From the IMG/VR virus record IMGVR_UViG_3300031413_000001: 64,000 nucleotides of DNA. One strand, given 5' to 3'. This document shows positions 385 to 24,896 of the stretch, piece after piece. Numbering within the stretch: position 1 is the first letter of the stretch; every line of letters starts with the position of its first letter. This DNA is from a virus. Lineage: Duplodnaviria > Heunggongvirae > Uroviricota > Caudoviricetes. The position numbers and the translations under genes were made by a program. Below the pieces are notes generated by a model. It had not been told where the DNA came from and searched no databases. It was given only the letters and a program-made list of their open reading frames with translations.

Positions 385-463
385 GGCCGCTTAGTTCAAG
401 CTGGCAGAACCGGGCACTCTAAATGCCTGTGCGTTGTGGGTTCGAGCCCCACAGTGGCCACCA
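385..463 (+). tRNA. amber suppressor tRNA (anticodon CUA)
   Basis: Acceptor GGCCGCT/AGTGGCC+A+CCA; D-stem GTTC/GAAC; anticodon stem GGGCA/TGCCT with loop CT-CTA-AA (419-421); T-arm GTGGG-TTCGAGC-CCCAC. Confidence 0.85.
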
Positions 464-857: not shown

Positions 858-960
858 GGGCCTATAGTTTAATGGTAGAACAGGGGCCTTATACACCCCC
901 TCCGAAAGGACGCCGCCAGATTAGCGGATGGTCAGGGTTCAATTCCCTGTGGGCCTACCA
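858..960 (+). tRNA. tRNA-Ile(UAU)-like with enlarged two-hairpin variable region
   Basis: Acceptor GGGCCTA/TGGGCCT+A+CCA; D-arm GTTT-AATGGTA-GAAC; anticodon loop CT-TAT-AC (890-892); T-arm CAGGG-TTCAATT-CCCTG; ~33-nt insert. Confidence 0.7.
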
Positions 961-1001: not shown

Positions 1002-2786
1002 ATGAGCAAAATATATCGCACCCACACCTGCAATGATCTCTCGCAGGCAGAGCGTGGCGAGCAGGTTAGGCTTGCTGGCTGGATCCACAAAAAGCGCAAC
1101 CACGGTGGACTGATGTTCATCGATCTGCGTGACAACTACGGCATCACCCAGCTGGTCCTAGATCCCTCGATGAGCAAGGCTCTTGATGGTGATGAGCTGC
1201 GACTGGAGAGTGTGGTAAGCGTTGATGGTGAGGTTCGTCTTCGCCCCGATGGCACACGAAATGCCAAGCTGGCAACCGGCGATATTGAGCTAGCCGTCAA
1301 GGCCGTCTGGGTTATCAACCACGCGCAGGAACTTCCCGTTCCCGTCAGTGCCTTTGACAATACGTATCCCGAGGACATGCGGCTCAAGTATCGCTTCCTC
1401 GACCTTCGTCGTCCAGAGCTGCACCGCAACATTCACCTCCGTAGCGATGTCATTGACACACTCCGAACGGAGATGAAGCGCAATGGGATCAAGGAGTTTC
1501 AGACTCCAATCCTGACCGCCAGCAGCCCAGAAGGCGCCAGGGACTTTCTCGTTCCCTCGCGCTTGCATCCGGGCAAGTTCTATGCTCTGCCACAGGCTCC
1601 CCAGCAGTTCAAGCAACTCTTGATGGTTGCCGGTTTTGACAGCTATTTTCAGATTGCCCCTTGCTTCCGCGATGAAGCAAGCCGGAGCGATCGCAGTCCC
1701 GGTGAGTTTTATCAGCTGGACTTGGAGATGAGTTTTGTTGAGCAAAAGGATGTGTTCAACCTAACCAGCGATGTGATCTATCGGACGTTCTCCAAGCACG
1801 CCGATGGTGCCAAGGTCTGGCATCCCAGTGAGTGGCCGCAGATTCCCTACCGGGAGGCCATTCAGCGGTTTGGTTCCGATAAGCCCGACCTTCGCAACCC
1901 CTTGGAATTCCGAGACGTAACGGACGAGTTCCGGAACAGCAACTTCAAGATCTTTGCCAACATGATCGCAGATGATCCTGAGGTTCGCATCTGGGGTATC
2001 CAGGCTCCCAACTTCACTGGTGGCAAGTTTGCCAAGCAAATGAGCGACTGGGCTATTGGTCAGGGTCAGCCAGGATTGGCGATGATCTACCCCACGGTGG
2101 AGAACGGTCACTCGGGGCCGGTGGTCAAGGCGCTCGGCAATCCAAGCGGAACGCTCAGTGACCTTCAGAGGATCATTGGTATGAACCCCGAGGACGGTGC
2201 CGCATTCGTAGCCGGCAAGCCCGATGAGTTCTACAAGTTCGCTGGTCTGTTGCGGACCAAGCTGGCCGAGGAACTGTTGCCCGAGGTCTTCAAGGACCCC
2301 GAGTTCAAGTTCTGCTGGATCGTGGACTTTCCCATGTATGAACTGGATGAGCAGGGCAAGGTTGCTTTCTCGCACAACCCGTTCAGCATGCCACAGGGTG
2401 GTATCACGGCTCTGAAGACCAAGAACCCACTGGACATTCTCGCGTACCAGTACGATCTGGTCTGCAATGGCATCGAGCTCAGCAGCGGGGCAATCCGCAA
2501 TCATGAGCCGGACACCATGCTGAAGGCCTTTGAACTGGCCGGATACAGCAATGAGAGCGTGGAAAAGAACTTTGGCGGCATGTTGAACGCATTCCGTTAT
2601 GGTGCTCCGCCCCACGGCGGTATCGCTCCGGGTGTTGACCGGATCGTCATGCTGCTGGCAGGTGCGACGAACATTCGTGAGGTCATCGCATTTCCCCTTG
2701 ACAGTCAGGGCAGGGACTTGATGATGAACGCTCCCAATGAAGTAACGCCTTTGCAGCTCAAAGAGCTAGGTATCAAGCACACCTAA
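1002..2786 (+). CDS. aspS: aspartate--tRNA ligase (likely non-discriminating Asp/Asn type)
   Basis: YRTHTC, FIDLRD, PEGARDF, ALPQAPQQFKQLLM, motif 2 FRDE, GAPPHGG motif 3. Confidence 0.97.
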   Translation: MSKIYRTHTCNDLSQAERGEQVRLAGWIHKKRNHGGLMFIDLRDNYGITQLVLDPSMSKALDGDELRLESVVSVDGEVRLRPDGTRNAKLATGDIELAVKAVWVINHAQELPVPVSAFDNTYPEDMRLKYRFLDLRRPELHRNIHLRSDVIDTLRTEMKRNGIKEFQTPILTASSPEGARDFLVPSRLHPGKFYALPQAPQQFKQLLMVAGFDSYFQIAPCFRDEASRSDRSPGEFYQLDLEMSFVEQKDVFNLTSDVIYRTFSKHADGAKVWHPSEWPQIPYREAIQRFGSDKPDLRNPLEFRDVTDEFRNSNFKIFANMIADDPEVRIWGIQAPNFTGGKFAKQMSDWAIGQGQPGLAMIYPTVENGHSGPVVKALGNPSGTLSDLQRIIGMNPEDGAAFVAGKPDEFYKFAGLLRTKLAEELLPEVFKDPEFKFCWIVDFPMYELDEQGKVAFSHNPFSMPQGGITALKTKNPLDILAYQYDLVCNGIELSSGAIRNHEPDTMLKAFELAGYSNESVEKNFGGMLNAFRYGAPPHGGIAPGVDRIVMLLAGATNIREVIAFPLDSQGRDLMMNAPNEVTPLQLKELGIKHT

Positions 2787-3614: not shown

Positions 3615-5330
3615 ATGACGGCAGCGAACCCAACAGCGATCAAGGTGAAGAAGGTGGCAAAGGAAAAAGCCCCGGCGATCGCCAAGTTCGAGAAGAACGG
3701 CGAAACCTATATTTCGGTGAAGTCGGCTCCCGAGGACGTGAAGAACACGGTTCAGAATGTCCTTCAGGATGTCCTGGGCTTTCACAAGGCTCGCGGCTAC
3801 GATTACATCTATCCGGTCGACGATCTCCTGGGCTTCCGCGACACGATCGTGGAAGAGTTCGACAACTACAGCGAGAACGCCACCGACCCCAAGAGCAAGT
3901 TCTTCCAGTTCATCGCGATCCTGGATGAGTTCGCCAAGGTGGTCAAGGCCCAGCTGGCCGACAAGATTGCCCGCGGCTCCATCGAGTTCGGTGACATTCC
4001 CTACCTGCTGGAAAAGGGCGCAGAGGTCTCCACTTCGCGTGATGGCGAGAAGATCGCCGGCGTGGTCGACACCGTGCAGCTGAAGCAGACTTTTTTCGGA
4101 ACCTACTATGAGGTCCGGATGAAGGTCATCAACAACGTGTATGGTCACGTTGCTGATTTGCCCTACAAGGCAACCATCGGCTATTACAGCGGCCTCAAGG
4201 AAATCGAGCAGTTGGCCGTGGCGCCGATCGCTGCCGAGGAAAAGGCAGAACTGCAGGAGCGTGGCGAACGCTTCCGCAAGTACAGCACGGGCGCGCACTA
4301 TATCCACTACAAGGGTCAGCTGACCCGGAGCAGCTGGTATGGTACCCGAGCATTCCGCGCAGACGGTCGAGCAATGATCGACGTCAGCAGCTTCTCGCAG
4401 GTGGACAACAACCAGTTCTCCAGCGAGGGCTACCAGAGCGGCATCGAGGAAGCCCGTGAGGACCGGACCAACAAGGTCAACATGGAAATCCCGGACGCGG
4501 ATCTGTGGCGCACGTATCCGTTCGTCTATGGCTTCTCGCTTTCCTCGAAGCAGTGGGGCCGGTTCAGCCTCGATGGTGTCAAGCCCATCGCTTTCCGTGA
4601 GGATGCGTTCGAGAAGCTGGTTCTCCCCGACGAAGACAAGGAACTGATCAAGGCCATCGTCCAGGATGACGGCAGTGACTTCAGCGACCTCATTGACGGC
4701 AAGGGCGGCGGTAGCATCTTCCTGCTGCATGGTCCTCCCGGACAGGGCAAGACGCTGACCGCGGAAGCGATCGCAGAGGAGCTCAAGCGTCCCCTCTACA
4801 GCATCTCGGTCGGCGAGCTGGGCACCAGCCCGGACAGCCTGGAGGAAACCCTCCGCGAGATCCTGGACGTCGCAACGGTCTGGAATTCGGTTCTCCTGCT
4901 CGACGAGGCAGACATCTTCCTCGAGGAGCGCGACGAAAAGGATATCGTCCGCAACGCAATGGTCGGCGTGTTCCTCCGACTGCTGGAATATCACCAGGGC
5001 GTTCTGTTCCTCACCACCAACCGGGTGAAGAACATCGATCAGGCGTTCTACTCGCGTATCTCCATCGGTCTCCGGTTCGGCGACGCAACGGTCGAGAAGC
5101 GGAAGCAGATCTGGGTCAACCTGAGCACCGCTGCTGGCGTGCAGGGGCTGGACCTGGACGTCCTGGCCGAGCATGATCTGAACGGTCGTCAGATCAAGAA
5201 CGTGATCAAGCTGGCCATGAAGCTGGCACGTGCGAAGAACGAAGCGGTGAGCAACGAGCTCATCGACAGCGTGATCGCCCGGACGGGTAACTTCTCCGAC
5301 AAGGAGAAGGAAGGTGACAACGACCGGTAA
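3615..5330 (+). CDS. AAA+ ATPase
   Basis: Walker A GPPGQGKT, Walker B LLLDEAD, LTTNR sensor, AFYSRI arginine finger; strong codon bias. Confidence 0.92.
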   Translation: MTAANPTAIKVKKVAKEKAPAIAKFEKNGETYISVKSAPEDVKNTVQNVLQDVLGFHKARGYDYIYPVDDLLGFRDTIVEEFDNYSENATDPKSKFFQFIAILDEFAKVVKAQLADKIARGSIEFGDIPYLLEKGAEVSTSRDGEKIAGVVDTVQLKQTFFGTYYEVRMKVINNVYGHVADLPYKATIGYYSGLKEIEQLAVAPIAAEEKAELQERGERFRKYSTGAHYIHYKGQLTRSSWYGTRAFRADGRAMIDVSSFSQVDNNQFSSEGYQSGIEEAREDRTNKVNMEIPDADLWRTYPFVYGFSLSSKQWGRFSLDGVKPIAFREDAFEKLVLPDEDKELIKAIVQDDGSDFSDLIDGKGGGSIFLLHGPPGQGKTLTAEAIAEELKRPLYSISVGELGTSPDSLEETLREILDVATVWNSVLLLDEADIFLEERDEKDIVRNAMVGVFLRLLEYHQGVLFLTTNRVKNIDQAFYSRISIGLRFGDATVEKRKQIWVNLSTAAGVQGLDLDVLAEHDLNGRQIKNVIKLAMKLARAKNEAVSNELIDSVIARTGNFSDKEKEGDNDR

Positions 5331-5972: not shown

Positions 5973-6265
5973 AGAAAACTCTAGCAATCGCAGGTCTCTT
6001 ATTGCTCGCAGCGTGTGGTCAGAAAAAGGCCATCACGCTTCCCCCGCCCCCAAAGAACACCGAAGTGGTCCAGCAGGACATCGCAATTCCTGTTCTTTGC
6101 AAAGTGGAAATCCAGAGGGCTCAGGTAAAGCTGGACACAATGGAAACAGGTCGTCCACTGGAAGAGCAGAATGCTGCATTCCGCGCTTCAATTGCAGAGC
6201 TGAAAAGCTACATTGTGGCCCTGGAAGCTGGCATCATCGGTTGCGGTGGCAAGGTAACCAAGTAA
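5969..6265 (+). CDS. putative o-spanin lipoprotein (Rz1-like)
   Basis: MKKTLAIAGLLLLAAC lipobox, Pro-rich linker, GTGA overlap. Confidence 0.7.
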   Translation: MKKTLAIAGLLLLAACGQKKAITLPPPPKNTEVVQQDIAIPVLCKVEIQRAQVKLDTMETGRPLEEQNAAFRASIAELKSYIVALEAGIIGCGGKVTK

Positions 6266-6323
6266 CCACTATTGACATGTGGAATTCTCCCTTGTAGGCT
6301 TGAGTGTCAACAAGGGAGTTTCT

Positions 6324-6917
6324 ATGAAGATCAAGTTTGAACTGACCGACGAAACCACGATCACCAACACGACCGTGAAGATCAGCGCCTGGATCCAGGG
6401 CGTAATCGATGGCCAGGAGCGTCCTGCGCTCGAAGGTCGGGCCCTTGAGATGGCCAAGAAGCTGTTTCCCGACGCCAGCTGGGCGTTCAGCAACTTCACA
6501 TACATGCCGGATCGTTTTACGTGGCGGGTTCGTGCCACGACCCGTATCGACGCCACGCAGAATGATCAGCTGGACGAGCGTGCTGATCAGGCCAACGAGC
6601 CGGGCAAGATCACGATCAGCTTTGAGGCTCCCGATGCCTCGATCCCACTTCATCAGCGTCGTGACGAAGAGAGCAAGCTGCGGGTTGCTCTGATCACCAA
6701 GGCCAAGGAAGAGGCAGCCAAGCTGGCCGGCACGTTGACGCGTGTGGAGTTCACCGAGTCGCAGCGCCGCGATATCACGAGCAACTCCATGCGGATGGCC
6801 AGCGCAACCTACGGCCTCGAGAGCGTTGCCAAGGGTGGTGGCGCAGATGGTGTCTCGCTGGGTCACAGTGAGAAAATCTACATCTCGGCCATCCTGACTG
6901 TTGACACGGACAAGTAA
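6324..6917 (+). CDS. hypothetical protein, weak SIMPL/DUF541-like C-terminus
   Basis: SD GGAG; biased codons; KAKEEAAKLA...V..TES pattern. Confidence 0.6.
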   Translation: MKIKFELTDETTITNTTVKISAWIQGVIDGQERPALEGRALEMAKKLFPDASWAFSNFTYMPDRFTWRVRATTRIDATQNDQLDERADQANEPGKITISFEAPDASIPLHQRRDEESKLRVALITKAKEEAAKLAGTLTRVEFTESQRRDITSNSMRMASATYGLESVAKGGGADGVSLGHSEKIYISAILTVDTDK

Positions 6918-6935
6918 GTCCGCTAGGCAGTTTAT

Positions 6936-7197
6936 CTGGAGGGACGAACTACCACTGTATGTCGGGGCCGCAAGCTACGGTCCGCAATTCATGTAGTCGT
7001 TGATCCCCTGAGAACAACAGGAGTTGCTACCTAAAGTTCAAAGGCCCATAAGGAATCCTGCGGAGAACTCTTCCCCCAACTACCCCAGCTACGGCACGGG
7101 TTATACAAGGTTGGGTCCGTATGGCGAGGATCGTGGGACGTCTAATAGGCACCCACATTGGAAGAGACAAGCGGGCGGGAGGAAACTCCCGCTCGTT
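6936..7197 (+). ncRNA. putative structured noncoding RNA A
   Basis: TTGACA-N17-TAGGCA promoter at 6901; nested stems (GGGCCG/CGGTCC, CTCTTCC/GGAAGAG, CCCAAC/GTTGGG); ends in GGAG-GAAA-CTCC hairpin; no credible ORF. Confidence 0.5.
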
Positions 7198-7200
7198 CTG

Positions 7201-7323
7201 TGAGTGTTAGCCTGGGGTTCAATTCCCCTAGTGGGGAACTGATCACCCTCGCGCAACAGGGCTGGAGCGGTGGGCGGTCTGGATTGACTGGCCGGTGCGG
7301 GGTGTGGATACCCGCGGCACTCA
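7201..7323 (+). ncRNA. putative structured noncoding RNA B
   Basis: Closing stem TGAGTGTT/GGCACTCA; internal hairpins TTCCCC-TAGT-GGGGAA and GCGGG-GTGTGGATA-CCCGC. Confidence 0.45.
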
Positions 7324-7565
7324 ATTGGTAGACAAGTCGTTTGAGCGGAGAGAAAAGACTTGTCGCGCCGCCTTTGATGTTATTGAAAACTGGACATTTC
7401 CATGTTATTCCGGTTCAGCCCGCTGGAAGGGGCTATCCCGAAAACCTGCAAAGTTCTGTTCTCACTAGCACCAAGGTGTAGCTATTATAATGGGATCGAG
7501 AACATTCAGAGAGAACCCACACAAAGCTGTTGACACACCAAGGCCACCCCGCTTATACACCAATA

Positions 7566-7845
7566 GTCTACTAAACGGATACGAGCGACCGCGTAATACC
7601 CCAAAGCCTTTTTAAGGTATGGTTTATTAATTAGAACGCTGTCATGGTTGTTGGTTCGAAACAACTCCATGTCTTCTCGTTGAACTTGGTGCTACAGAGC
7701 GTTGAAACAATCGTCGGACAAACTGCGGCCGCGGTCCCGGTGAAGCAATACATAGCTTGGTGTGGGGTGTGGAAACCCACAGTAGATGATGGGAGGGCTA
7801 ACTACTCTCCCATCCGATCGAGAAAACATTCAGGGGTTCAACTCT
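7566..7845 (+). ncRNA. putative structured noncoding RNA C
   Basis: TTGACA (7530) with TATACA promoter; hairpins GTGGG-GTGTGGAAA-CCCAC and GATGGGAG.../...CTCCCATC; no credible ORF. Confidence 0.45.
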
Positions 7846-7914
7846 GTTGTTGACGCGCTGGTACTCTGAGCATAAACAGAGTACAAGAAGATCGGCACTA
7901 CGGAGTATTACAGC

Positions 7915-9468
7915 ATGTTCATCCTGGAAGCATTTCAGCGCAAAGCTGTTGTTAGCATTGCTACGCGCTTTGCAACTTGCAAGCGTGTGTTGCTACAAAG
8001 CGCAACAGGGTCGGGCAAAACGGTAATGGCCGTGGAGTTCATCCGGGAGTGGCTGGAAGCGAATCCGGGCAAGAACGTGCTTTGCTTGTTCAATCTTCAG
8101 TGTTTGCTGCCGCAGTTTGAGGCAAGCTTCAAGCGGCATGGTCTGCGGAACGAGGTCGCAGTATTCCACGATCAGATCAGCCGGGCAAAGGATGGCAGTC
8201 GGCTGGTTGACCATCAGAACGATCGCGATCGTCGGATCATGTTGACGATGCCAGAGACGCTGGCTGGTTCGATGCGCGGTGCAGGTTCGGTTGATCTTCA
8301 GCTGGACGAGGATTGGCTTGGTCATGTTGGCCTGATCCTGATCGACGAAGCCCACAAGGGCACAAGCGAAAATTATCAGTATATTCGCAACGAGCTAGAC
8401 GTACAGGTTCTTGGCCTTACGGCGACTCCGATGCGCGTACAGAACAAGGACGGTGAGTGCCTGGCAAACGATTGGGAGTATGCGCTGGTCACAACGACCA
8501 GCATTCGCGAACTCATCGACATGGGCAAGTTGGTCGCTCCACTGTATTATGATCTGGACGAAGATGCCCACTTGTTCCGGGAATGGCAGGCCGCAGTGGC
8601 CATCCACAGTGCAGAGGACGGCAACAAACAGACGATTTGGTTCTGCCGGAACACCAAGCATGCCAAGGACTGGGAAACAAAGCTGTTGGAGGTCGGCGAA
8701 ACTTGCGCGATCATCACCAGCGTTGCAGACGAGGAACTGGGAACGACTTCGCAGACGCCAAATCAGCGCGAGGCAATTTACAAGGACTTCGACGCAGGCA
8801 AGATCACCCACTTGATCAGCATCCAGGCGCTTTGTGAGGGCTTCGACGCCCCGATCGCCAAGTATTGCGTCATCGATCGCGGCATCGGAAACAAGGCGCT
8901 GTATCAGCAGATCTTGGGCCGGGTGCTCCGCCCCTACGAGGGCAAGATCAACGGTCACATCATCGATCGCTGCGGCAATCATCAGAAGCATGGCGACATC
9001 GAGGACTACGTTTGGGACTTGGAAGCTGAAGCAGCAGAGGCTGTGGTCGTAAAGCTGGGCGACAAGCGGACGATCACCCCGGAGCAGATGGAGCGCGCAA
9101 CGTATGTTGAGGTAAAGTGCGAGACGCACGGCTGCCCCAGCGTTTACAATGCCAAGCGGCACTTGAGCTGCCCTCACTGCAATACGGCTCACAAGGTGGA
9201 AGTGGAAGTGTCGGTGTCCACTTGGTTCGCTGCAAAGCTGCCACAGGTCCAGAAGGCCATCATTGCTAACTTTACAGCAACGATCGCCAAGGCACTCAAC
9301 GGGGACTTCCAAGCGGCCATTGCGCTGATGAACAAGTATCCCGAATTGTTCGACGACGATGCAGAGGGCTTGGAGTTCAAGGCCGAATATAGTGCGCTGC
9401 CACAGATTTGCGCCCTTCGCCCCAAGACCGAAAAGGACATGAAGAAGACGTTCCGCTACGCCGCATAA
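7915..9468 (+). CDS. superfamily 2 DEAH helicase with C-terminal Zn finger
   Basis: ATGSGKT, IDEAH, GLTATP, EGFD, QILGRVLR; Cys pairs near C-terminus. Confidence 0.92.
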   Translation: MFILEAFQRKAVVSIATRFATCKRVLLQSATGSGKTVMAVEFIREWLEANPGKNVLCLFNLQCLLPQFEASFKRHGLRNEVAVFHDQISRAKDGSRLVDHQNDRDRRIMLTMPETLAGSMRGAGSVDLQLDEDWLGHVGLILIDEAHKGTSENYQYIRNELDVQVLGLTATPMRVQNKDGECLANDWEYALVTTTSIRELIDMGKLVAPLYYDLDEDAHLFREWQAAVAIHSAEDGNKQTIWFCRNTKHAKDWETKLLEVGETCAIITSVADEELGTTSQTPNQREAIYKDFDAGKITHLISIQALCEGFDAPIAKYCVIDRGIGNKALYQQILGRVLRPYEGKINGHIIDRCGNHQKHGDIEDYVWDLEAEAAEAVVVKLGDKRTITPEQMERATYVEVKCETHGCPSVYNAKRHLSCPHCNTAHKVEVEVSVSTWFAAKLPQVQKAIIANFTATIAKALNGDFQAAIALMNKYPELFDDDAEGLEFKAEYSALPQICALRPKTEKDMKKTFRYAA

Positions 9469-19932: not shown

Positions 19933-20025
19933 TGGAGGGACGGGGATTCGAACCCCGCTTCACTCTCTCGCTGGTTACGCCTGCCCAATATGCGAGAGCG
20001 CCCCTACCAATAAGGCGGCTCCTCC
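19933..20025 (-). ncRNA. tRNA-like element lacking a canonical anticodon loop
   Basis: Acceptor GGAGGAG/TCCCTCC-A, D-arm GCCTT-ATTGGT-AGGGGC, T-arm CGGGG-TTCGAAT-CCCCG; anticodon arm replaced by CTCTCGC/GCGAGAG stem with 20-nt interior. Confidence 0.65.
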
Positions 20026-20029
20026 AATA

Positions 20030-20320
20030 ATCTGGGGAGAGCGTTTGGTTGACTAGACCAGTGCTCTCCCCTCGGGGCTATGACACCCCAGCGGATTTCC
20101 CCGCGTTGGTTTACAGTTTTAGAGTGGTCCAACAACCACTGCGACATTTGGAGTGTCGCCAACTCGCGGACCAAACAGTAACGGCCCGCTGACCCAGGAT
20201 TGATCGGTAGATCCTGACCACCCGGCTTGTTATCGTACGCCTTCCAACGCTGCCTCGTAAGCCCGGCAGTCGGTGCCCACTTAGTAGGGCGTCTCTAGTC
20301 TGCAAGCATTTCTGCCTACT
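20030..20320 (-). ncRNA. putative structured noncoding RNA upstream of tRNA-like element
   Basis: Minus-strand promoter TTGAAG-N17-TATAAG (20354-20326); many hairpins; long-range GACTAGA/TCTAGTC complementarity. Confidence 0.5.
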
Positions 20321-20416
20321 CCTCCCTTATACAGAACAACGCTTTCCGCTTCAATATTCTTATTTCCATGAAAAAGATTGCTCTAAATGTCTCTTTTTCT
20401 TGTGTTTTGCACCAGG

Positions 20417-21005: not shown

Positions 21006-21929
21006 ATGAATTACATGGACAATCCCAAGGTCAGTCGCACATCGGCAGAATACGTGGCCGCGGAAAACTATTTCCGTTCGCTGGTGCAACAGGCCAACCA
21101 ACTCGACGATGTGATGCCAGTTGTCCTGGACATCGACAATGCAATGGCGCAGGTTCTTCTCGACTACAATGAGGGCAACCGAAACATCAAGCCCAGCAAG
21201 CTGGACCAGTACAAGCGCGACATGGTGGAAGGTCGGTACAAGACCAATGGCGAAAGTCTGATCGTCGCCAAGAGCGGTCGTCTCAATGATGGTCAGCATC
21301 GCCTCCACGCAATGCTCGACACTGGGCTGACCTTTCGTTCTGTTGTTAGTTTTGGTGTTTCGCCAGACGCCATCGAGACCATCGATCTAGGATCGGCTCG
21401 AAGTGCCGGTGACGCGCTGAGCATCGACGATGTTCCCAACGCTGCTACCACCAGCTCGTTGCTGAAGCTGATGGTCAGCTACGAACGAACCATGAAGGAA
21501 GGCAAAGTACCGGCCGGCACCATTCAGCTGGGAAGTAACAGTCGAGTAACTGTTCCGGAAATTCGGCAGCGTTTCATCAATAGTGAGAACGCCGACCGCG
21601 CGCTGATCACCGACGCAGCAACCTACGCCAACAGTCACAGCAAGAGCTTTCAGGGCTTGCTGACGCCACAGCAGGTTGCATTCACTTTTTGGTTGCTTGG
21701 GTCGATCAATCAGCAGGCAGCCGTTGGGGTGCTGGATAAGATTCGCACCCAGATGGGCTTTACGCCGGGCGATCCGGTGTTCGCAGCTTATACGCATCTG
21801 AAGAAGATGAAGCCGGGTAAGAATACCAACGATCGCATTTCGGTTGTTATTTACGGGTGGAATCTGATGCGCCGCGGAAAGACGGTAAACCGGTTCAGTC
21901 TGCCGGACGTTATCCAGAAGCCACGCTAA
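21006..21929 (+). CDS. ParB/DGQHR-like protein
   Basis: NRNI...KL.QY..DM..GRY..NGE...LNDGQHR. Confidence 0.78.
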   Translation: MNYMDNPKVSRTSAEYVAAENYFRSLVQQANQLDDVMPVVLDIDNAMAQVLLDYNEGNRNIKPSKLDQYKRDMVEGRYKTNGESLIVAKSGRLNDGQHRLHAMLDTGLTFRSVVSFGVSPDAIETIDLGSARSAGDALSIDDVPNAATTSSLLKLMVSYERTMKEGKVPAGTIQLGSNSRVTVPEIRQRFINSENADRALITDAATYANSHSKSFQGLLTPQQVAFTFWLLGSINQQAAVGVLDKIRTQMGFTPGDPVFAAYTHLKKMKPGKNTNDRISVVIYGWNLMRRGKTVNRFSLPDVIQKPR

Positions 21930-21930
21930 T

Positions 21931-21975
21931 AGAAAAGCGGGAGGAGACTCCCGCTTTTTCTATGACTGGTTGACA
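21931..21975 (+). terminator. terminator abutting next promoter
   Basis: AAAAGCGGGAG-GAGA-CTCCCGCTTTT-TCTATGACTGGTTGAC. Confidence 0.7.
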
Positions 21976-22022
21976 TGCTGTCCAAAGCTGCTATCCAGAG
22001 TTGAACAACAAGGAGATCGAGC

Positions 22023-22382
22023 ATGTGGTTGGTGGAACGAGTGCGTGATGATGGCTACGAGGGTGAGACGAAAGTTCCGCTGTTCGTATCCAACGATGAA
22101 ACTTTTGCCAAGGACTGGGCCGAGGCAGCAGAGATCGAAATCAGCGCCGTACGGCTTATGGAAAAGCCCAAGCACTACCGCTTTTTCTTGGGCATGAAAA
22201 AGGAAGGCGGCGGCACGTATGGCAAAGAGGACTACGACGCTGAGATGGCTGTTTACTTTGAGAACGCTCGCAAGGTGATGGTTCTCGACACGTATGCTGA
22301 AAACAACATACTGGAATATCCCAACAATCACAGCTATGAGGTAACGGAAGTGCCGGTCCAAAACCCTCCGGCAACCGGGTAA
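22023..22382 (+). CDS. hypothetical protein
   Basis: AGGAGATCG RBS. Confidence 0.65.
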   Translation: MWLVERVRDDGYEGETKVPLFVSNDETFAKDWAEAAEIEISAVRLMEKPKHYRFFLGMKKEGGGTYGKEDYDAEMAVYFENARKVMVLDTYAENNILEYPNNHSYEVTEVPVQNPPATG

Positions 22383-22628
22383 CTACATAATCTGCGTACT
22401 AGCTGGTGTAAAAGTTCCACACCAGCTTCAACTTTGTTAGCCAAAGGTTACCGTGGGATTCCTGCATAAGTGTATGGAATTCTGCGGTTTTTCCTTGGCT
22501 GCCAATTACCAGTTGTAAAAAGAATGCAAGAACAGTGACATTGACTGTTGACGTTTAGGAAGCATCCGCTAAGTTGACATAACAACGCGCCGGGCGGTGA
22601 GTTGAAACAACATGGAGATCGAATAGTC

Positions 22629-22994
22629 ATGCGTATCGTACAGTTCAACAAGGAAGCAACCGACGCGATCCAGGGCCGCAAGGGTGGCAAGCTGCGTCTC
22701 GAGATCAAGGACAACACGCTGTTCATGCGTCCGACCGATCGGAAGGCCGGCCCCCACGTGCTCAGCGAGCTCAAGGGCACCAAGGCCAAGGGCGTCAACA
22801 TCGAGGTCTCCGACAAGGAGCTCGAGAAGCTGGGTGCATCGGCAATCCTCGCAGACGCCAGCGAGTTCGGCCTCAAGGCCGACAAGTACGGCTGGTACGC
22901 GCTGACCGCCGCAGGCACCGAGGGCAACGTCGAGGGCGCTTCGGCAACGGTCGCCCACAAGGACGAGCCGGCTGCAGAGCCCGCCGCGGCGTAA
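22629..22994 (+). CDS. KYGW-family small protein (paralogue 2)
   Basis: LFMRPTDR...GLKADKYGWY; extreme codon bias. Confidence 0.8.
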   Translation: MRIVQFNKEATDAIQGRKGGKLRLEIKDNTLFMRPTDRKAGPHVLSELKGTKAKGVNIEVSDKELEKLGASAILADASEFGLKADKYGWYALTAAGTEGNVEGASATVAHKDEPAAEPAAA

Positions 22995-23010
22995 GCCAAG
23001 GTCCTAACAG

Positions 23011-23042
23011 AAAAGCGCGCTGGGAAACCGGTGCGCTTTTTT
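23011..23042 (+). terminator. terminator
   Basis: AAAAGCGCGCTGG-GAAA-CCGGTGCGCTTTT. Confidence 0.7.
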
Positions 23043-23049
23043 GTGACTG

Positions 23050-23086
23050 AACTGGTTGACAACTCACCAGAACCTGCTAACTCTGG
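23050..23086 (+). promoter_or_regulatory. conserved phage promoter
   Basis: AACTGGTTGAC-N14-TGCTAACTCTGG. Confidence 0.7.
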
Positions 23087-23113
23087 ATAACGGAAACAGT
23101 AGGAGATCGGAAG

Positions 23114-23674
23114 ATGGCACACAGAGGATCACACAACGGCGTCGTCGTAGGCGCAATCGTTGGTCTGCTGCTCAGCTTTCGGATCGTGGTGGTGATCGTC
23201 CTCGGCATCGTCGCTTACTTCTGCTTTGCCATTGTCTACGATGGAGTGATCTCCAAGGCCAAGGCGCCCGAGGGCAGTTGGTCCTTTCAAGTAGTTGGTG
23301 AGACCACTCCTGACTTCCACTTCAGCCGAGAGAATCCCAGCTGGACGATCCAGACGGAGATGACCAACAAGGGCTCGATTAAGATTTCGGGCTGGACGCT
23401 TCGTGGCAAGCTGTATGAGTGTCCCCGTGCATTTGCGCCCCTGGACACTTGCACGAAGGTTGGCGAAACTGCCAAGCGGGTCGGCGGCATTGTGGTCCCC
23501 GGCGAGACGCATGGCTTTCAGACCGTGATGGACTTCTGGGACAACGATGACACGGTTGGTCAGGTCCGTGCAATTTGGTCCGTTGAGGATGTGACCACTG
23601 ACAACGACACGCAGGCTGATAAAAGTCAGCGTTTGATGGAAGAGCAGCTTGCACGTCTCAACAGTTACAAGTAA
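23114..23674 (+). CDS. membrane-anchored protein with beta-rich extracytoplasmic domain
   Basis: N-terminal TM, Cys pair, beta-strand pattern. Confidence 0.7.
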   Translation: MAHRGSHNGVVVGAIVGLLLSFRIVVVIVLGIVAYFCFAIVYDGVISKAKAPEGSWSFQVVGETTPDFHFSRENPSWTIQTEMTNKGSIKISGWTLRGKLYECPRAFAPLDTCTKVGETAKRVGGIVVPGETHGFQTVMDFWDNDDTVGQVRAIWSVEDVTTDNDTQADKSQRLMEEQLARLNSYK

Positions 23675-23899: not shown

Positions 23900-24541
23900 A
23901 TGCACCTAGTGGATGCAACGGGTTACGTGGGTGGCGAACGCTTCGATCGAGTCGAAGAAGGCATCACAGGCTGGTTCTGGGATACCGAGGACACGCTTCT
24001 CGTGATCAACAAGAGCATTGCAAACGGTGTCGTCGATGCAGTCGAGAAGACGCTCCGAAGCTGCTTTCCGCATGAGCTGGAATGGTCGCGCTACAATTTG
24101 GGCGTTCTGGACCCCAGCATCGAAGCAATCCGCGAGGCTGCACTCAAGTGCGATGTGATCGTGATCGACGAAGCTGAGCTGCTGGATCGACTTCCCCAGC
24201 TGGGCGCAGAGCTCGTTGCCCTGGAGGCGACCACGCGCTTTATCTACGTGGTCAGCGTGAAGATGACCCCAGAGCAGCTGGAGATCGAAAACGCCAAAGA
24301 GGACGCCCTGGAAGCAATCGGCAGCGAGCGAGTGATCGCTTCCTCCTACAGCGCCGAGGACGTCCTAATTCCTCAGGATGTTCACGTGATCGCGTCGGGT
24401 ATGATTCCACTGGAATCCATTGAGGTTCCCCAGTCCCTGAAGGATCGTTTCATCCACATGGAACTGACGATGGAAGGACCGGCCGAGGGGCAGACCTATC
24501 GTGCATGGGTACAGGAGCAGAACGATCTACTCCGCGGCTGA
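23900..24541 (+). CDS. hypothetical protein, degenerate P-loop-like
   Basis: Walker-B-like VIVIDEAE but no Walker A. Confidence 0.6.
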   Translation: MHLVDATGYVGGERFDRVEEGITGWFWDTEDTLLVINKSIANGVVDAVEKTLRSCFPHELEWSRYNLGVLDPSIEAIREAALKCDVIVIDEAELLDRLPQLGAELVALEATTRFIYVVSVKMTPEQLEIENAKEDALEAIGSERVIASSYSAEDVLIPQDVHVIASGMIPLESIEVPQSLKDRFIHMELTMEGPAEGQTYRAWVQEQNDLLRG

Positions 24542-24544
24542 TAA

Positions 24545-24582
24545 AACTGGTTGACGTTGTCCTGATTCCTGCTAGTTCTGGT
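24545..24582 (+). promoter_or_regulatory. conserved phage promoter
   Basis: AACTGGTTGAC-N14-TGCTAGTTCTGGT. Confidence 0.65.
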
Positions 24583-24608
24583 TTATCGGAACAAACAGGA
24601 GTCAGGCA

Positions 24609-24896
24609 ATGAACGACTACGTGATCATCGATCTCAACACCAAGGAAGTCTACAACAAGCGGACGGGCCTGTTCCAGTCCACGCTTACCAAGGACTGCCT
24701 CTACAAGAGTGTTCGTGGTCGCGCTGGTCTGGTGCCCTCTAAGCATTGCAATGCCCGCCACCTGCAGATCTGGTCCAACGACCACTATGAAGTGCGGAAC
24801 CCCGAGATTCACATCATGCGTAAGGTTCGCGAGGACAGCGCCTTTGACAGCGCAGCAGGTCGCCCCCACGTTGTAATCGACGCGGGGGTACTCTGA
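24609..24896 (+). CDS. hypothetical protein
   Basis: SD AGGAG after conserved promoter. Confidence 0.65.
   Translation: MNDYVIIDLNTKEVYNKRTGLFQSTLTKDCLYKSVRGRAGLVPSKHCNARHLQIWSNDHYEVRNPEIHIMRKVREDSAFDSAAGRPHVVIDAGVL

Follow-up and report, generated by a model that had tools for sequence, protein, structure and literature searches.

What occupies a gap of ~1 kb between two phage genes, if not another gene, is the question raised by positions 6918-7914 of the 64,000-nt stretch of viral DNA analysed here (hereafter the window). Huge phages are noted for their translation genes, tRNAs and tRNA synthetases among them, and to our knowledge their non-coding RNAs are almost unexplored. An original prediction made from the sequence alone had proposed that the gap is free of open reading frames (ORFs) and holds related structured RNAs that share a covarying hairpin. 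By comparison with related loci, we find that the island of novel structured RNAs in this gap is real and unusually dense, which supports the core of that idea and sharpens it: the island has four structured RNA modules (A1, A2, B and C), not two or three. With moderate confidence, we read the gap as an island of genes for non-coding RNAs; in one clade of huge phages it is conserved 5´ of an SF2 helicase gene, and its content varies.

The gap is non-coding and matches no known RNA family

The ORF upstream of the gap stops at position 6917 and the helicase ATG lies at 7915. Within the gap, TAA, TAG and TGA are each present in all six frames, so the ~1 kb is non-coding under any stop reassignment or genetic code. 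The predicted ORF-free island is therefore borne out, and protein coding through an alternative genetic code was ruled out as a candidate explanation; translated peptides, named in advance as a finding that would count against the prediction, cannot be encoded here. A 69-aa ORF at 7644-7853 was also rejected as a gene, as it has no Pfam match and spans covarying helices.

Positions 6001-9000 of the window are 98% identical to G001, an IMG/VR virus record of 416,714 bp in which the island lies at ~323.2-324.2 kb. The INPHARED/GenBank phage collection contained no DNA match to the region. An Rfam 15 search of the gap, proposed as a check in the original prediction, returned chance-level matches only (best E=0.19, to a human long non-coding RNA model) and none at the gathering score, leaving the island without a known family. 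ARAGORN called no tRNA or transfer-messenger RNA (tmRNA) in the gap. The relatives' loci (56.7 kb) likewise gave no Rfam match at E<=0.1, and neither ARAGORN nor Rfam called a tRNA in the islands of seven relatives. The tmRNA, signal recognition particle, 6S, RNase P, hammerhead and twister RNAs were dropped as candidates by eye, given that their core motifs are lacking and there were no Rfam matches. Modules A1, A2, B and C are all absent from Rfam; between them, they represent three or more RNA families in which covariation is clear.

The helicase has about twenty orthologues with 59-77% identity. We compared nine of the orthologue loci (L030, L031, L032, L033, L036, L037, L038, L039 and L040), delimiting modules by BLAST and nhmmer with pieces of the window gap. 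The island is syntenic in relatives whose helicase is 69-77% identical. The coordinates of all features in the window are collected in Table 1; the A1 terminal hairpin, the T arm of A2 and the whole of element B had been missed in the original prediction.

Compensatory changes define the A1 RNA

Using nhmmer, homologues of A1 were found in L038, L036, L030, L040 and L037. RNAalifold assigned 62 pairs to the six-sequence alignment, 35 of them with compensatory double changes. Paired cells made up 92.8% of the total, compared to 32-48% when the partners were slid by 1-3 columns, and the observed covariation was reached by none of 500 column shuffles. The most conserved feature is an invariant hairpin loop, GUCUAAUAGGCA (~7136-7147), for which no complementary site was found elsewhere in the phage genome.

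The A1 promoter overlaps the last codons of the upstream ORF and precedes a conserved start, UGGAGGGACGG in the window. It is kept in place in L038 and L030, where TTGACA with a 17-18 nt spacer lies 5´ of the conserved start TGGAGGGACGG. At the other end, L030, L036, L038 and L037 have a T run directly after the terminal hairpin, making it a canonical intrinsic terminator in these relatives; the T run is degenerate in the window. A1 would thus appear to be an RNA of its own, running from a host-type promoter to a terminator hairpin. The sequence AGCTACGG, which the original prediction had reported as a repeat at 6973 and 7087, is indeed present at both sites; the repetition is at chance level (E=4.8) and not meaningful, and both copies lie within conserved blocks of this single RNA.

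Motif scans for A1 outside the clade gave chance matches only. The loop word UCUAAUAGG of the invariant hairpin also occurs in a terminator hairpin at L096 1367-1400 (contig PLIX01000052.1, from an unrelated Gammaproteobacteria metagenome-assembled genome), a match that is probably due to chance because the search pattern forced the loop word.

A2 and C are paralogous modules marked by a shared hairpin

The two 19-nt hairpins at the centre of the original prediction, GCGGG-GTGTGGATA-CCCGC at 7297-7315 and GTGGG-GTGTGGAAA-CCCAC at 7762-7780, are present, and the compensatory change between them (C-G versus U-A) is kept in orthologues, with the first type (h1) in L036 and L038 and the second (h2) in L036. 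The 20-nt hairpin match GGTG..ACCC has E=0.011 within the gap. Allowing at most one mismatch, GGGGTGTGGNNACCC occurs at only two sites in G001, both inside this gap. Across the islands we counted 17 real instances of this h hairpin, plus one in the tRNA array of G001. The syntax is constant, comprising (Y)GGUG, a 4-bp stem, a loop of 8-11 nt that contains GG, and the complementary strand, while the sequence of the stem is free (CGGG, UGGG, CUGG, UAGG, CAGG, UCAG). After the hairpin come exactly one nucleotide and then a helix 3´ strand, which pairs with a partner located 107-222 nt upstream. For this abutting closing helix, a score >=8 was obtained in 10 of 18 cases, compared to 3 of 36 controls shifted by 12 or 20 nt.

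Both A2 and C are built in this way, with the shared hairpin always one nucleotide 5´ of the closing 3´ strand and with a covarying closing helix. For A2, the helix is GAGUGGCA/UGCCACUU in L038 and GAGUAGCA/UGCUACUC in L036. Its T arm is an exact tRNA consensus (G53/UUCRAUU/C61). Longer homologues of A2, which we term X units (155-200 nt or more), were found in L031, L037, L039 and L040; they have the same T arm and the same GGUG hairpin within closing helices of their own, for example GAUUCAGUG/CGCUGAAUC. For C, the start UAGUCUACU pairs with AGUAGAU directly after h2. This is the closing stem that had been predicted to abut the second hairpin, and it covaries, being CUAUCUACAA/UUGUAGAUAG in L036. 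The three-way alignment of C (window, L036 and L030) has 81 pairs, 22 with compensatory changes. In the T-loop-like hairpin of C, the stem is fully replaced (AAAGAG/CUCUUU in L030) and the loop GGUUCGA(A) is kept. Units built like C also follow promoter P1 in L037, L039 and L040, with the hairpin loop flavour AAUGAGGAW.

A2 and C, together with the X and C units of relatives, are therefore a paralogous family marked by the shared hairpin. The suggestion of related non-coding RNAs with a common protein-binding or tertiary motif is thus supported by about ten related loci as far as the two hairpin-bearing modules are concerned; B is unrelated to the hairpin. Protein binding may be a role of the hairpin. 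There seemed to be no space for A2 to have a promoter of its own after the A1 terminal hairpin; its transcription is probably by read-through from A1.

A further member of the A2/C type is found inside a tRNA array of G001. This array (G001:C1:351900-360000; L081 10000-20000) carries 21 or more minus-strand tRNA genes, and the hairpin GGUG-UCAG-GUGUGGAUA-CUGA sits between its tRNA-Gly and tRNA-Cys, followed by CUUGGUG blocks like those of RNA C.

Element B is a dispersed element with an invariant apex

Element B is present in four copies in G001 (B1-B4), as stretches of 170-200 bp at 31.2, 162.9, 239.2 and 323.7 kb. Including L036 and several other viral or metagenomic contigs, there are nine distinct sequences; scans of IMG/VR, metagenome and genome collections with 20-mers and 16-mers gave only chance hits beyond these nine. 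All nine fold independently, by minimum free energy, to the same architecture. A variable hairpin is joined by a conserved linker, GYCGCGCC, to an irregular rod that ends in an invariant cap, and the tail carries a TATAAT-like box and GGGAUC(G)AGA across copies. In a MAFFT alignment, 79% of cells were paired, compared to 31-43% when slid, and 22 of 53 pairs were compensatory, compared to 10-12 when slid; none of 500 shuffles reached the observed value. Helices that differ yet remain paired include CUCUGGGCAG/CUGUCCGGAG, CACUUAG/CUAGGUG and CUUUG..UUGC/GCAA..CAAAG, and UAUU/AAUA is exchanged against UAAA/UUUA. The + strand is more stable than its reverse complement in 8 of 9 copies (summed, -581 versus -477 kcal/mol), and there are 46 G.U pairs versus 20 A.C. 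The excess of G.U over A.C and the unequal folding of the strands indicate RNA rather than duplex DNA.

In G001, B2, B3 and B4 lie between co-directional genes, 20-60 nt 5´ of the next start codon, while B1 is antisense to both neighbouring genes. The genes that follow these three copies are small and unrelated. With contexts and orientations this varied, B is not tied to one gene or orientation. Beyond the element itself, B3 has flanking sequence similar to the 3´ end of A2, a hint of dispersal through segmental duplication. No base-pairing target of the B apex was found within the phage genome. Judging from the comparison of copies, B is most likely an RNA read from the + strand that acts via a protein recognising the invariant 35-nt apex; the apex would be bound by the protein, with the covarying rod as a spacer or a substrate of a double-strand RNase. 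The main alternative for B is an intergenic processing or stability element. Among known systems, the RNase III processing hairpins of T7 and imperfect palindromes of the enterobacterial repetitive intergenic consensus (ERIC) type are repeated long irregular intergenic hairpins transcribed with their neighbours, and the rod may resemble them. B differs from both in having an asymmetric invariant cap, an extra 5´ hairpin and one antisense copy.

Several candidate explanations for B were rejected. A sigma-54 promoter (GGCAC-N5-TTGG, in three copies) was discarded because it lacks the -12 GC, the remaining copies do not have the motif, and transcription would begin inside the 5´ hairpin. For a sigma-70 promoter within B (TTGAGA, 17 nt, TATTCC), the -7 T is absent in all copies and the start would split the rod. 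A retron, a TnpB-type guide RNA or a mobile-element end was dropped since no ORF of reverse transcriptase or TnpB size is listed beside any copy, domains not having been searched. B as a replication origin was also dropped; its copies do not coincide with the turning points of the cumulative GC skew.

By eye, two kinds of gene downstream of B could be described: a 155-aa protein with a HAD-type DxDGVL N-terminus (L003 1653-2117 and L021 4217-4681) and a ~158-aa protein with two H-x-T-L motifs, as in the 2H phosphoesterase type (L004 1699-2175 and L020 7173-7688).

Promoter cassettes separate the units and precede the helicase gene

Promoters had been predicted from TTGACA at 6901 and 7530. Both are borne out, their position being conserved in relatives, and a third promoter has TTGACG at 7850. 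The layout of promoter P1 (TTGACA, a 17-nt spacer and a TA-rich hexamer) is found 5´ of the helicase in L030, L031, L032, L033 and L036, and P1 is kept in all the relatives. P2 precedes the helicase in every relative, as a small covarying hairpin, TTGAC, a 17-nt spacer, a TA-rich -10 box and AGAUCGG near the start. The pairing of the P2 hairpin is kept across different sequences in L030, L031, L032, L036, L037, L039 and L040, with variants such as CCAGGU/ACCUGG and CAGAGUUG/CAACUCUG.

The repeat GATCGAGAA(AA)CATTCAG reported at 7494 and 7816 is present as claimed. It had been listed alongside the RNA features, and here our conclusion differs. GAUCGAGAAAAC lies just 5´ of the P2 hairpin and CAUUCAG is the 5´ arm of that hairpin; the copy at 7494 is a degenerate form of the P2 cassette, in front of P1. 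Moreover, GATCG is found beside TTGAC at 21 and 27 sites in G001, compared to ~8.5 expected (2.5- to 3-fold enrichment). Given this placement and enrichment, the GATCGAGAA repeat is a promoter/attenuator cassette, not an RNA motif. The GATCGAGAA repeats and the small hairpins that abut TTGAC would be cassettes that separate the units and drive the helicase, and GATCGAGAA, as a promoter-cassette word, helps to annotate transcription units in these genomes.

Similar cassettes have been described in T4-type phages, in which promoter-early stem-loops (PeSLs) are repeated intergenic cassettes with a host-type promoter and a stem-loop by the -35 box (Arbiol et al. 2010, PMC2839356; Comeau et al. 2014, PMC4122927). 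P2 and the B tail resemble PeSLs, as does their location before accessory genes in plastic regions, and P2 has the defining sigma-70-like promoter with an abutting stem-loop before a gene. PeSL stem-loops, in contrast, are short terminators that number ~50 per genome, whereas B is a two-hairpin structure of ~165 nt with a 35-nt invariant apex and ~4 copies per genome.

Table 1. Positions of the island modules, promoter cassettes and neighbouring genes in the window
Feature	Position	Strand	Description
tRNA, anticodon CUA	385-463		ARAGORN call, labelled Pyl; amber suppressor; not listed by Rfam at gathering score
tRNA, 100 nt	858-957		Rfam call; missed by ARAGORN
Class II aminoacyl-tRNA synthetase	1002-2786		Asp/Lys/Asn-type
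AAA ATPase	3615-5330		
A1 promoter	6901-6929	+	TTGACA 6901-6906, 17-nt spacer, TAGGCA 6924-6929
RNA A1	~6937-7200	+	~265 nt, multi-helix; homologues and covariation
A1 terminal hairpin	7171-7196	+	11-bp, GAAA-capped
RNA A2	7201-7323	+	tRNA-like module; conserved in L036, L038
A2 closing helix	7201-7208 / 7316-7323	+	5´ strand / 3´ strand
A2 linker	7209-7213	+	5 nt
A2 T arm	7214-7228	+	GGGG-UUCAAUU-CCCC
A2 GGUG and hairpin h1	7294-7297, 7298-7314	+	middle region lies 5´ of GGUG; one nucleotide follows h1
Element B	7320-7510	+	one copy of the dispersed element
B hairpin P1	7331-7364	+	variable; YGGAAG-type loop
B rod	7365-7482	+	~120 nt, irregular, GC-closed
B cap	7417-7434	+	AGCCC-GCUGGAAG-GGGCU; invariant, within ~35 invariant nucleotides
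B tail	3´ of rod	+	A/U-rich; TATAAT 7486-7491 and GGGATCGAGAACATTCAGAG
Promoter P1	7530-7558	+	TTGACA 7530-7535, 17-nt spacer, TTATAC 7553-7558 preceded by GC
RNA C	7562-7790	+	~230 nt; starts from promoter P1
C closing helix	7566-7572 / 7781-7787	+	paired strands
C T-loop-like hairpin	7647-7665	+	GUUGUU-GGUUCGA-AACAAC
C invariant block	from ~7684	+	CUUGGUGCUACAGAGCGUUGAAACAA
C GGUG and hairpin h2	7759-7762, 7763-7779	+	
Extra hairpin	7791-7811	+	GGGAG...CUCCC; window only, absent from L036 and L030 in the alignment
P2 cassette and helicase leader	7816-7914	+	
P2, 5´ part	7816-7855	+	GATCGAGAAAAC 7816-7827; hairpin CAGGG..CUCUG 7831-7846, abutting -35 TTGACG 7850-7855
P2, 3´ part	7873-7895	+	17-nt spacer, -10 TAAACA 7873-7878; AGAUCGG 7889-7895; GGAG before ATG 7915
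SF2 helicase	7915-9468		directly 3´ of gap

The island is ancestral and plastic

In most relatives, 0.3-1.4 kb of non-coding sequence lies 5´ of the helicase, and it is often interrupted by minus-strand insertions of one or two genes. L032 and L033 have only ~150 bp there, which holds just two tandem promoters. The island is thus ancestral yet plastic in the clade, as most relatives keep a stretch of variable size and L032 and L033 the promoters only.

The island is also an insertion hot spot. The inserted minus-strand genes (one or two, of 220-274 aa, one with a weak PF22162 match) lie between A1/A2 and the rest of the island, at L030 2084-3636, L036 2321-2983, L038 1055-1771, L039 2052-2795 and L040 1807-2562; the window has none. 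Another conserved non-coding block was seen between the X unit and P1 in L031 (3300-3540), L037 (3200-3400), L039 (3080-3300) and L040 (2850-3070). It has the words CAAGGUCGCA and GGCGGUGCCAG..AGGGGAAAC.GGCCU.GCAA in these four loci and is missing from the window, where element B occupies that place. The last unit before P2 in relatives (L037 3700-3860, L039 3690-3850, L031 3745-3905 and L040 3637-3795) is closed by a 10-bp covarying helix (GAAUUCACCG/CGGUGAAUUC, GAAUUCGUUG/CAACGAAUUC, GAGUUUGUUG/CAGCAAACUC) and is flanked on both sides by the palindrome GAUC. The window is without this unit and keeps only one GAUCGAG junction.

A2 and C have a tRNA-like syntax

In tRNA numbering, U8 and N9 are followed by the D stem (10-13), the D loop with G18 and G19, the second strand of the stem (22-25), N26 and the next helix. 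The h hairpin maps onto this U8-to-N26 syntax. The loop AAUGAGGAW fits A14, R15, G18, G19 and A21 of the D loop, and the flavour AAUGAGGAA also has A14, R15 and A21. The one-nucleotide spacer and the U-G prefix make h a better fit to the D arm than to the T arm. The original prediction had likened the hairpin and its abutting stem to a T-arm/acceptor stack; tRNA geometry was an apt comparison, and a D arm beside an analogue of the anticodon stem is the better fit. Going by syntax only, h is read best as a D-arm mimic.

From 5´ to 3´, A2 consists of the closing helix, a linker, the T arm, a middle region, the D-like arm and the closing helix, and can be seen as the body of a tRNA that is open at its anticodon loop and sealed across its acceptor end. 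Features in common with tRNA (RF00005) are a T arm of the G53/UUCRAUU/C61 type, a 5-nt linker like the variable region, a dinucleotide like U8-G9, a 4-bp D-like stem whose loop contains GG, and a single-nucleotide spacing to the next helix. The differences from tRNA are that the order is permuted and that there is no anticodon loop, 7-bp acceptor stem or CCA. A permuted true tRNA was rejected by inspection, since no 7-bp acceptor pairing was seen between the strand after the T arm and the strand before U-G.

The YrlA Y RNAs of bacteria and phages have the order T arm, middle stem-loop and D arm inside a stem of the 5´ and 3´ ends, a permuted tRNA-like arrangement (Chen et al. 2014, PMC4201824). 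A2 and C resemble YrlA (RF02553) in having the T arm first, then the middle region, and the D-like arm last by the closing helix, and G001 resembles YrlA-bearing genomes in that it also encodes a Ro60 homologue. The A2/C-type units differ in being longer, with 107-222 nt between the closing strands and large insertions, and, in the window, in having the D-like loop GUGUGGAWA.

On this model, the T and D-like loops of A2 and C would dock into a tRNA-like elbow atop the closing helix, and the folded unit could be a protein-binding scaffold or a decoy for a factor that recognises tRNA shape. Candidate partners are the phage Ro60, tRNA-modifying or -processing enzymes, and host defence nucleases directed at tRNA. 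If A2 and C do mimic the tRNA elbow, the YrlA idea extends to a new, more variable family in arrays, and which tRNA-shape-recognising factor, from phage or host, binds them becomes testable. B, for its part, offers a compact invariant RNA apex as bait for pull-downs. Only tentatively do we propose the fuller version, in which A2, C and the X units form tandem arrays of new permuted tRNA mimics that serve as Y RNA-like scaffolds or anti-defence decoys, with A1 and B as further new classes and the B apex as a protein-recognition site.

Evidence against the RNA-island reading and alternative explanations

Several points weigh against these readings. The window loop GUGUGGAWA has G instead of A at position 14, and no single simple acceptor-like stem is formed by the sequence that separates the T arm from the D-like arm. 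The Rfam tRNA model had no match on A2 or C even at E<=10, and the YrlA covariance model had none across positions 6700-8000 at E<=10. The Ro60 gene is ~115 kb from the island, and known Y RNAs are encoded beside Ro60. The alignments of A2 and C have only 3 to 7 sequences, and because the GG and T-loop bases are invariant, a contact between docked loops is beyond a covariation test. The transcript ends are inferred, having been drawn from consensus promoters and hairpins. As for B, the folding advantage of the window's own copy over shuffles is only modest (z = -2.2), we could not assign a promoter to the element, and B1 has the antisense orientation noted above.

One alternative is that the modules are cis-acting parts of mRNAs, with A1 and A2 as the structured 3´ untranslated region or terminator of the upstream gene and B and C as a long 5´ leader of the helicase operon involved in processing, stability or attenuation, comparable to the RNase III sites of T7 or to T4-type cassettes of promoter and stem-loop. 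Long imperfect rods are typical double-strand RNase substrates, and the location of B2, B3 and B4 shortly before start codons would suit such a role. Transcripts from P1 would traverse C and P2 into the helicase, there being no strong terminator between, and the P2 hairpin abuts the -35 box as in PeSLs (PMC2839356). However, A1 has a separate promoter, which is conserved, and four relatives end this RNA with a canonical terminator. L032 and L033 keep P1, P2 and the helicase without RNA C, and thus helicase expression does not require C. Although antisense to both its neighbours, B1 keeps the + strand G.U pairs, and the invariant 35-nt apex and the T arm would be superfluous for a mere processing hairpin. 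We consider the cis-acting explanation unlikely.

A specific version of the RNA-island reading would make A2, C and their relatives Y RNAs of the phage Ro60, part of a machine of Ro60, Y RNA and host PNPase. G001 has a TROVE/Ro60 gene (PF05731, E=1.8e-38; 573 aa; 21883-23604, minus strand; L085), A2 and C place T and D-like arms within a 5´/3´ helix in the order seen in YrlA, and the AUCGAA and AUCGAG motifs that flank units resemble the CGAA motif of Y RNAs. Phage Ro60 genes with nearby Y RNA-like genes are documented (PMC4201824; PMC12135203), including Thermus phage phiLo, which has a Y RNA near Ro60 (PMC12135203). The YrlA model, however, scores nothing at the island. Over all of G001, its best score was 33.8 bits, versus a gathering score of 69, and fell in the tRNA array, with none at 323-324 kb; we take tandem tRNAs to be a known false positive for this model. 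Neither A2 nor C has the motif GNCGAAN0-1G, which in Y RNAs lies close to the 5´ end and presumably contacts Ro60; positions 6901-7920 contain a single G.CGAA, GACGAA at 6943, which is in A1 and has no G after it, and the flanking AUCGAG and AUCGAA motifs are near misses of the CGAA motif. The closing helices covary freely, and hence hold no conserved Ro-binding sequence. With the YrlA model, the CGAA motif and Ro60 adjacency all wanting, the likeness is architectural, not family membership. A2 and C are not YrlA members, and we think it distinctly unlikely that they are the Y RNAs of this Ro60. Given the distance of Ro60 from the island, a likelier site is a 677-bp non-coding gap two genes upstream of Ro60 (G001 23978-24654), which could be the more expected home of its Y RNAs. 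That gap has a AGATCGAG...GTTGACA cassette, and Rfam found no YrlA in it.

Finally, it is highly improbable that the features act in DNA, as a replication origin, packaging site, recombination hot spot or mobile cassette whose pairing is an inverted-repeat by-product: the locus is plastic, with minus-strand inserts in L030, L036, L038, L039 and L040 and varying content, and B is dispersed, facing either way with respect to its neighbours, has hexamers that resemble -35 and -10 boxes and shows the B3/A2 flank similarity suggestive of segmental duplication, but more than 75 pairs across A1, B and C keep pairing through compensatory changes, the G.U excess and strand-unequal folding point to RNA, the B copies are off the GC-skew turning points, and the T-arm and tRNA-like syntax has no role in DNA.

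Genome setting of the island

Collectively, the comparisons favour the reading of the gap as an island of RNA genes, and phages of this group appear to produce their own RNAs. The island has no sequence similarity to an RNA locus at 19933-20354 of the window (minus strand). Its setting is phage-like and rich in translation genes (Table 1): the RNA families share their genome with many tRNAs, including an amber suppressor, as well as with a class II aminoacyl-tRNA synthetase and Ro60.

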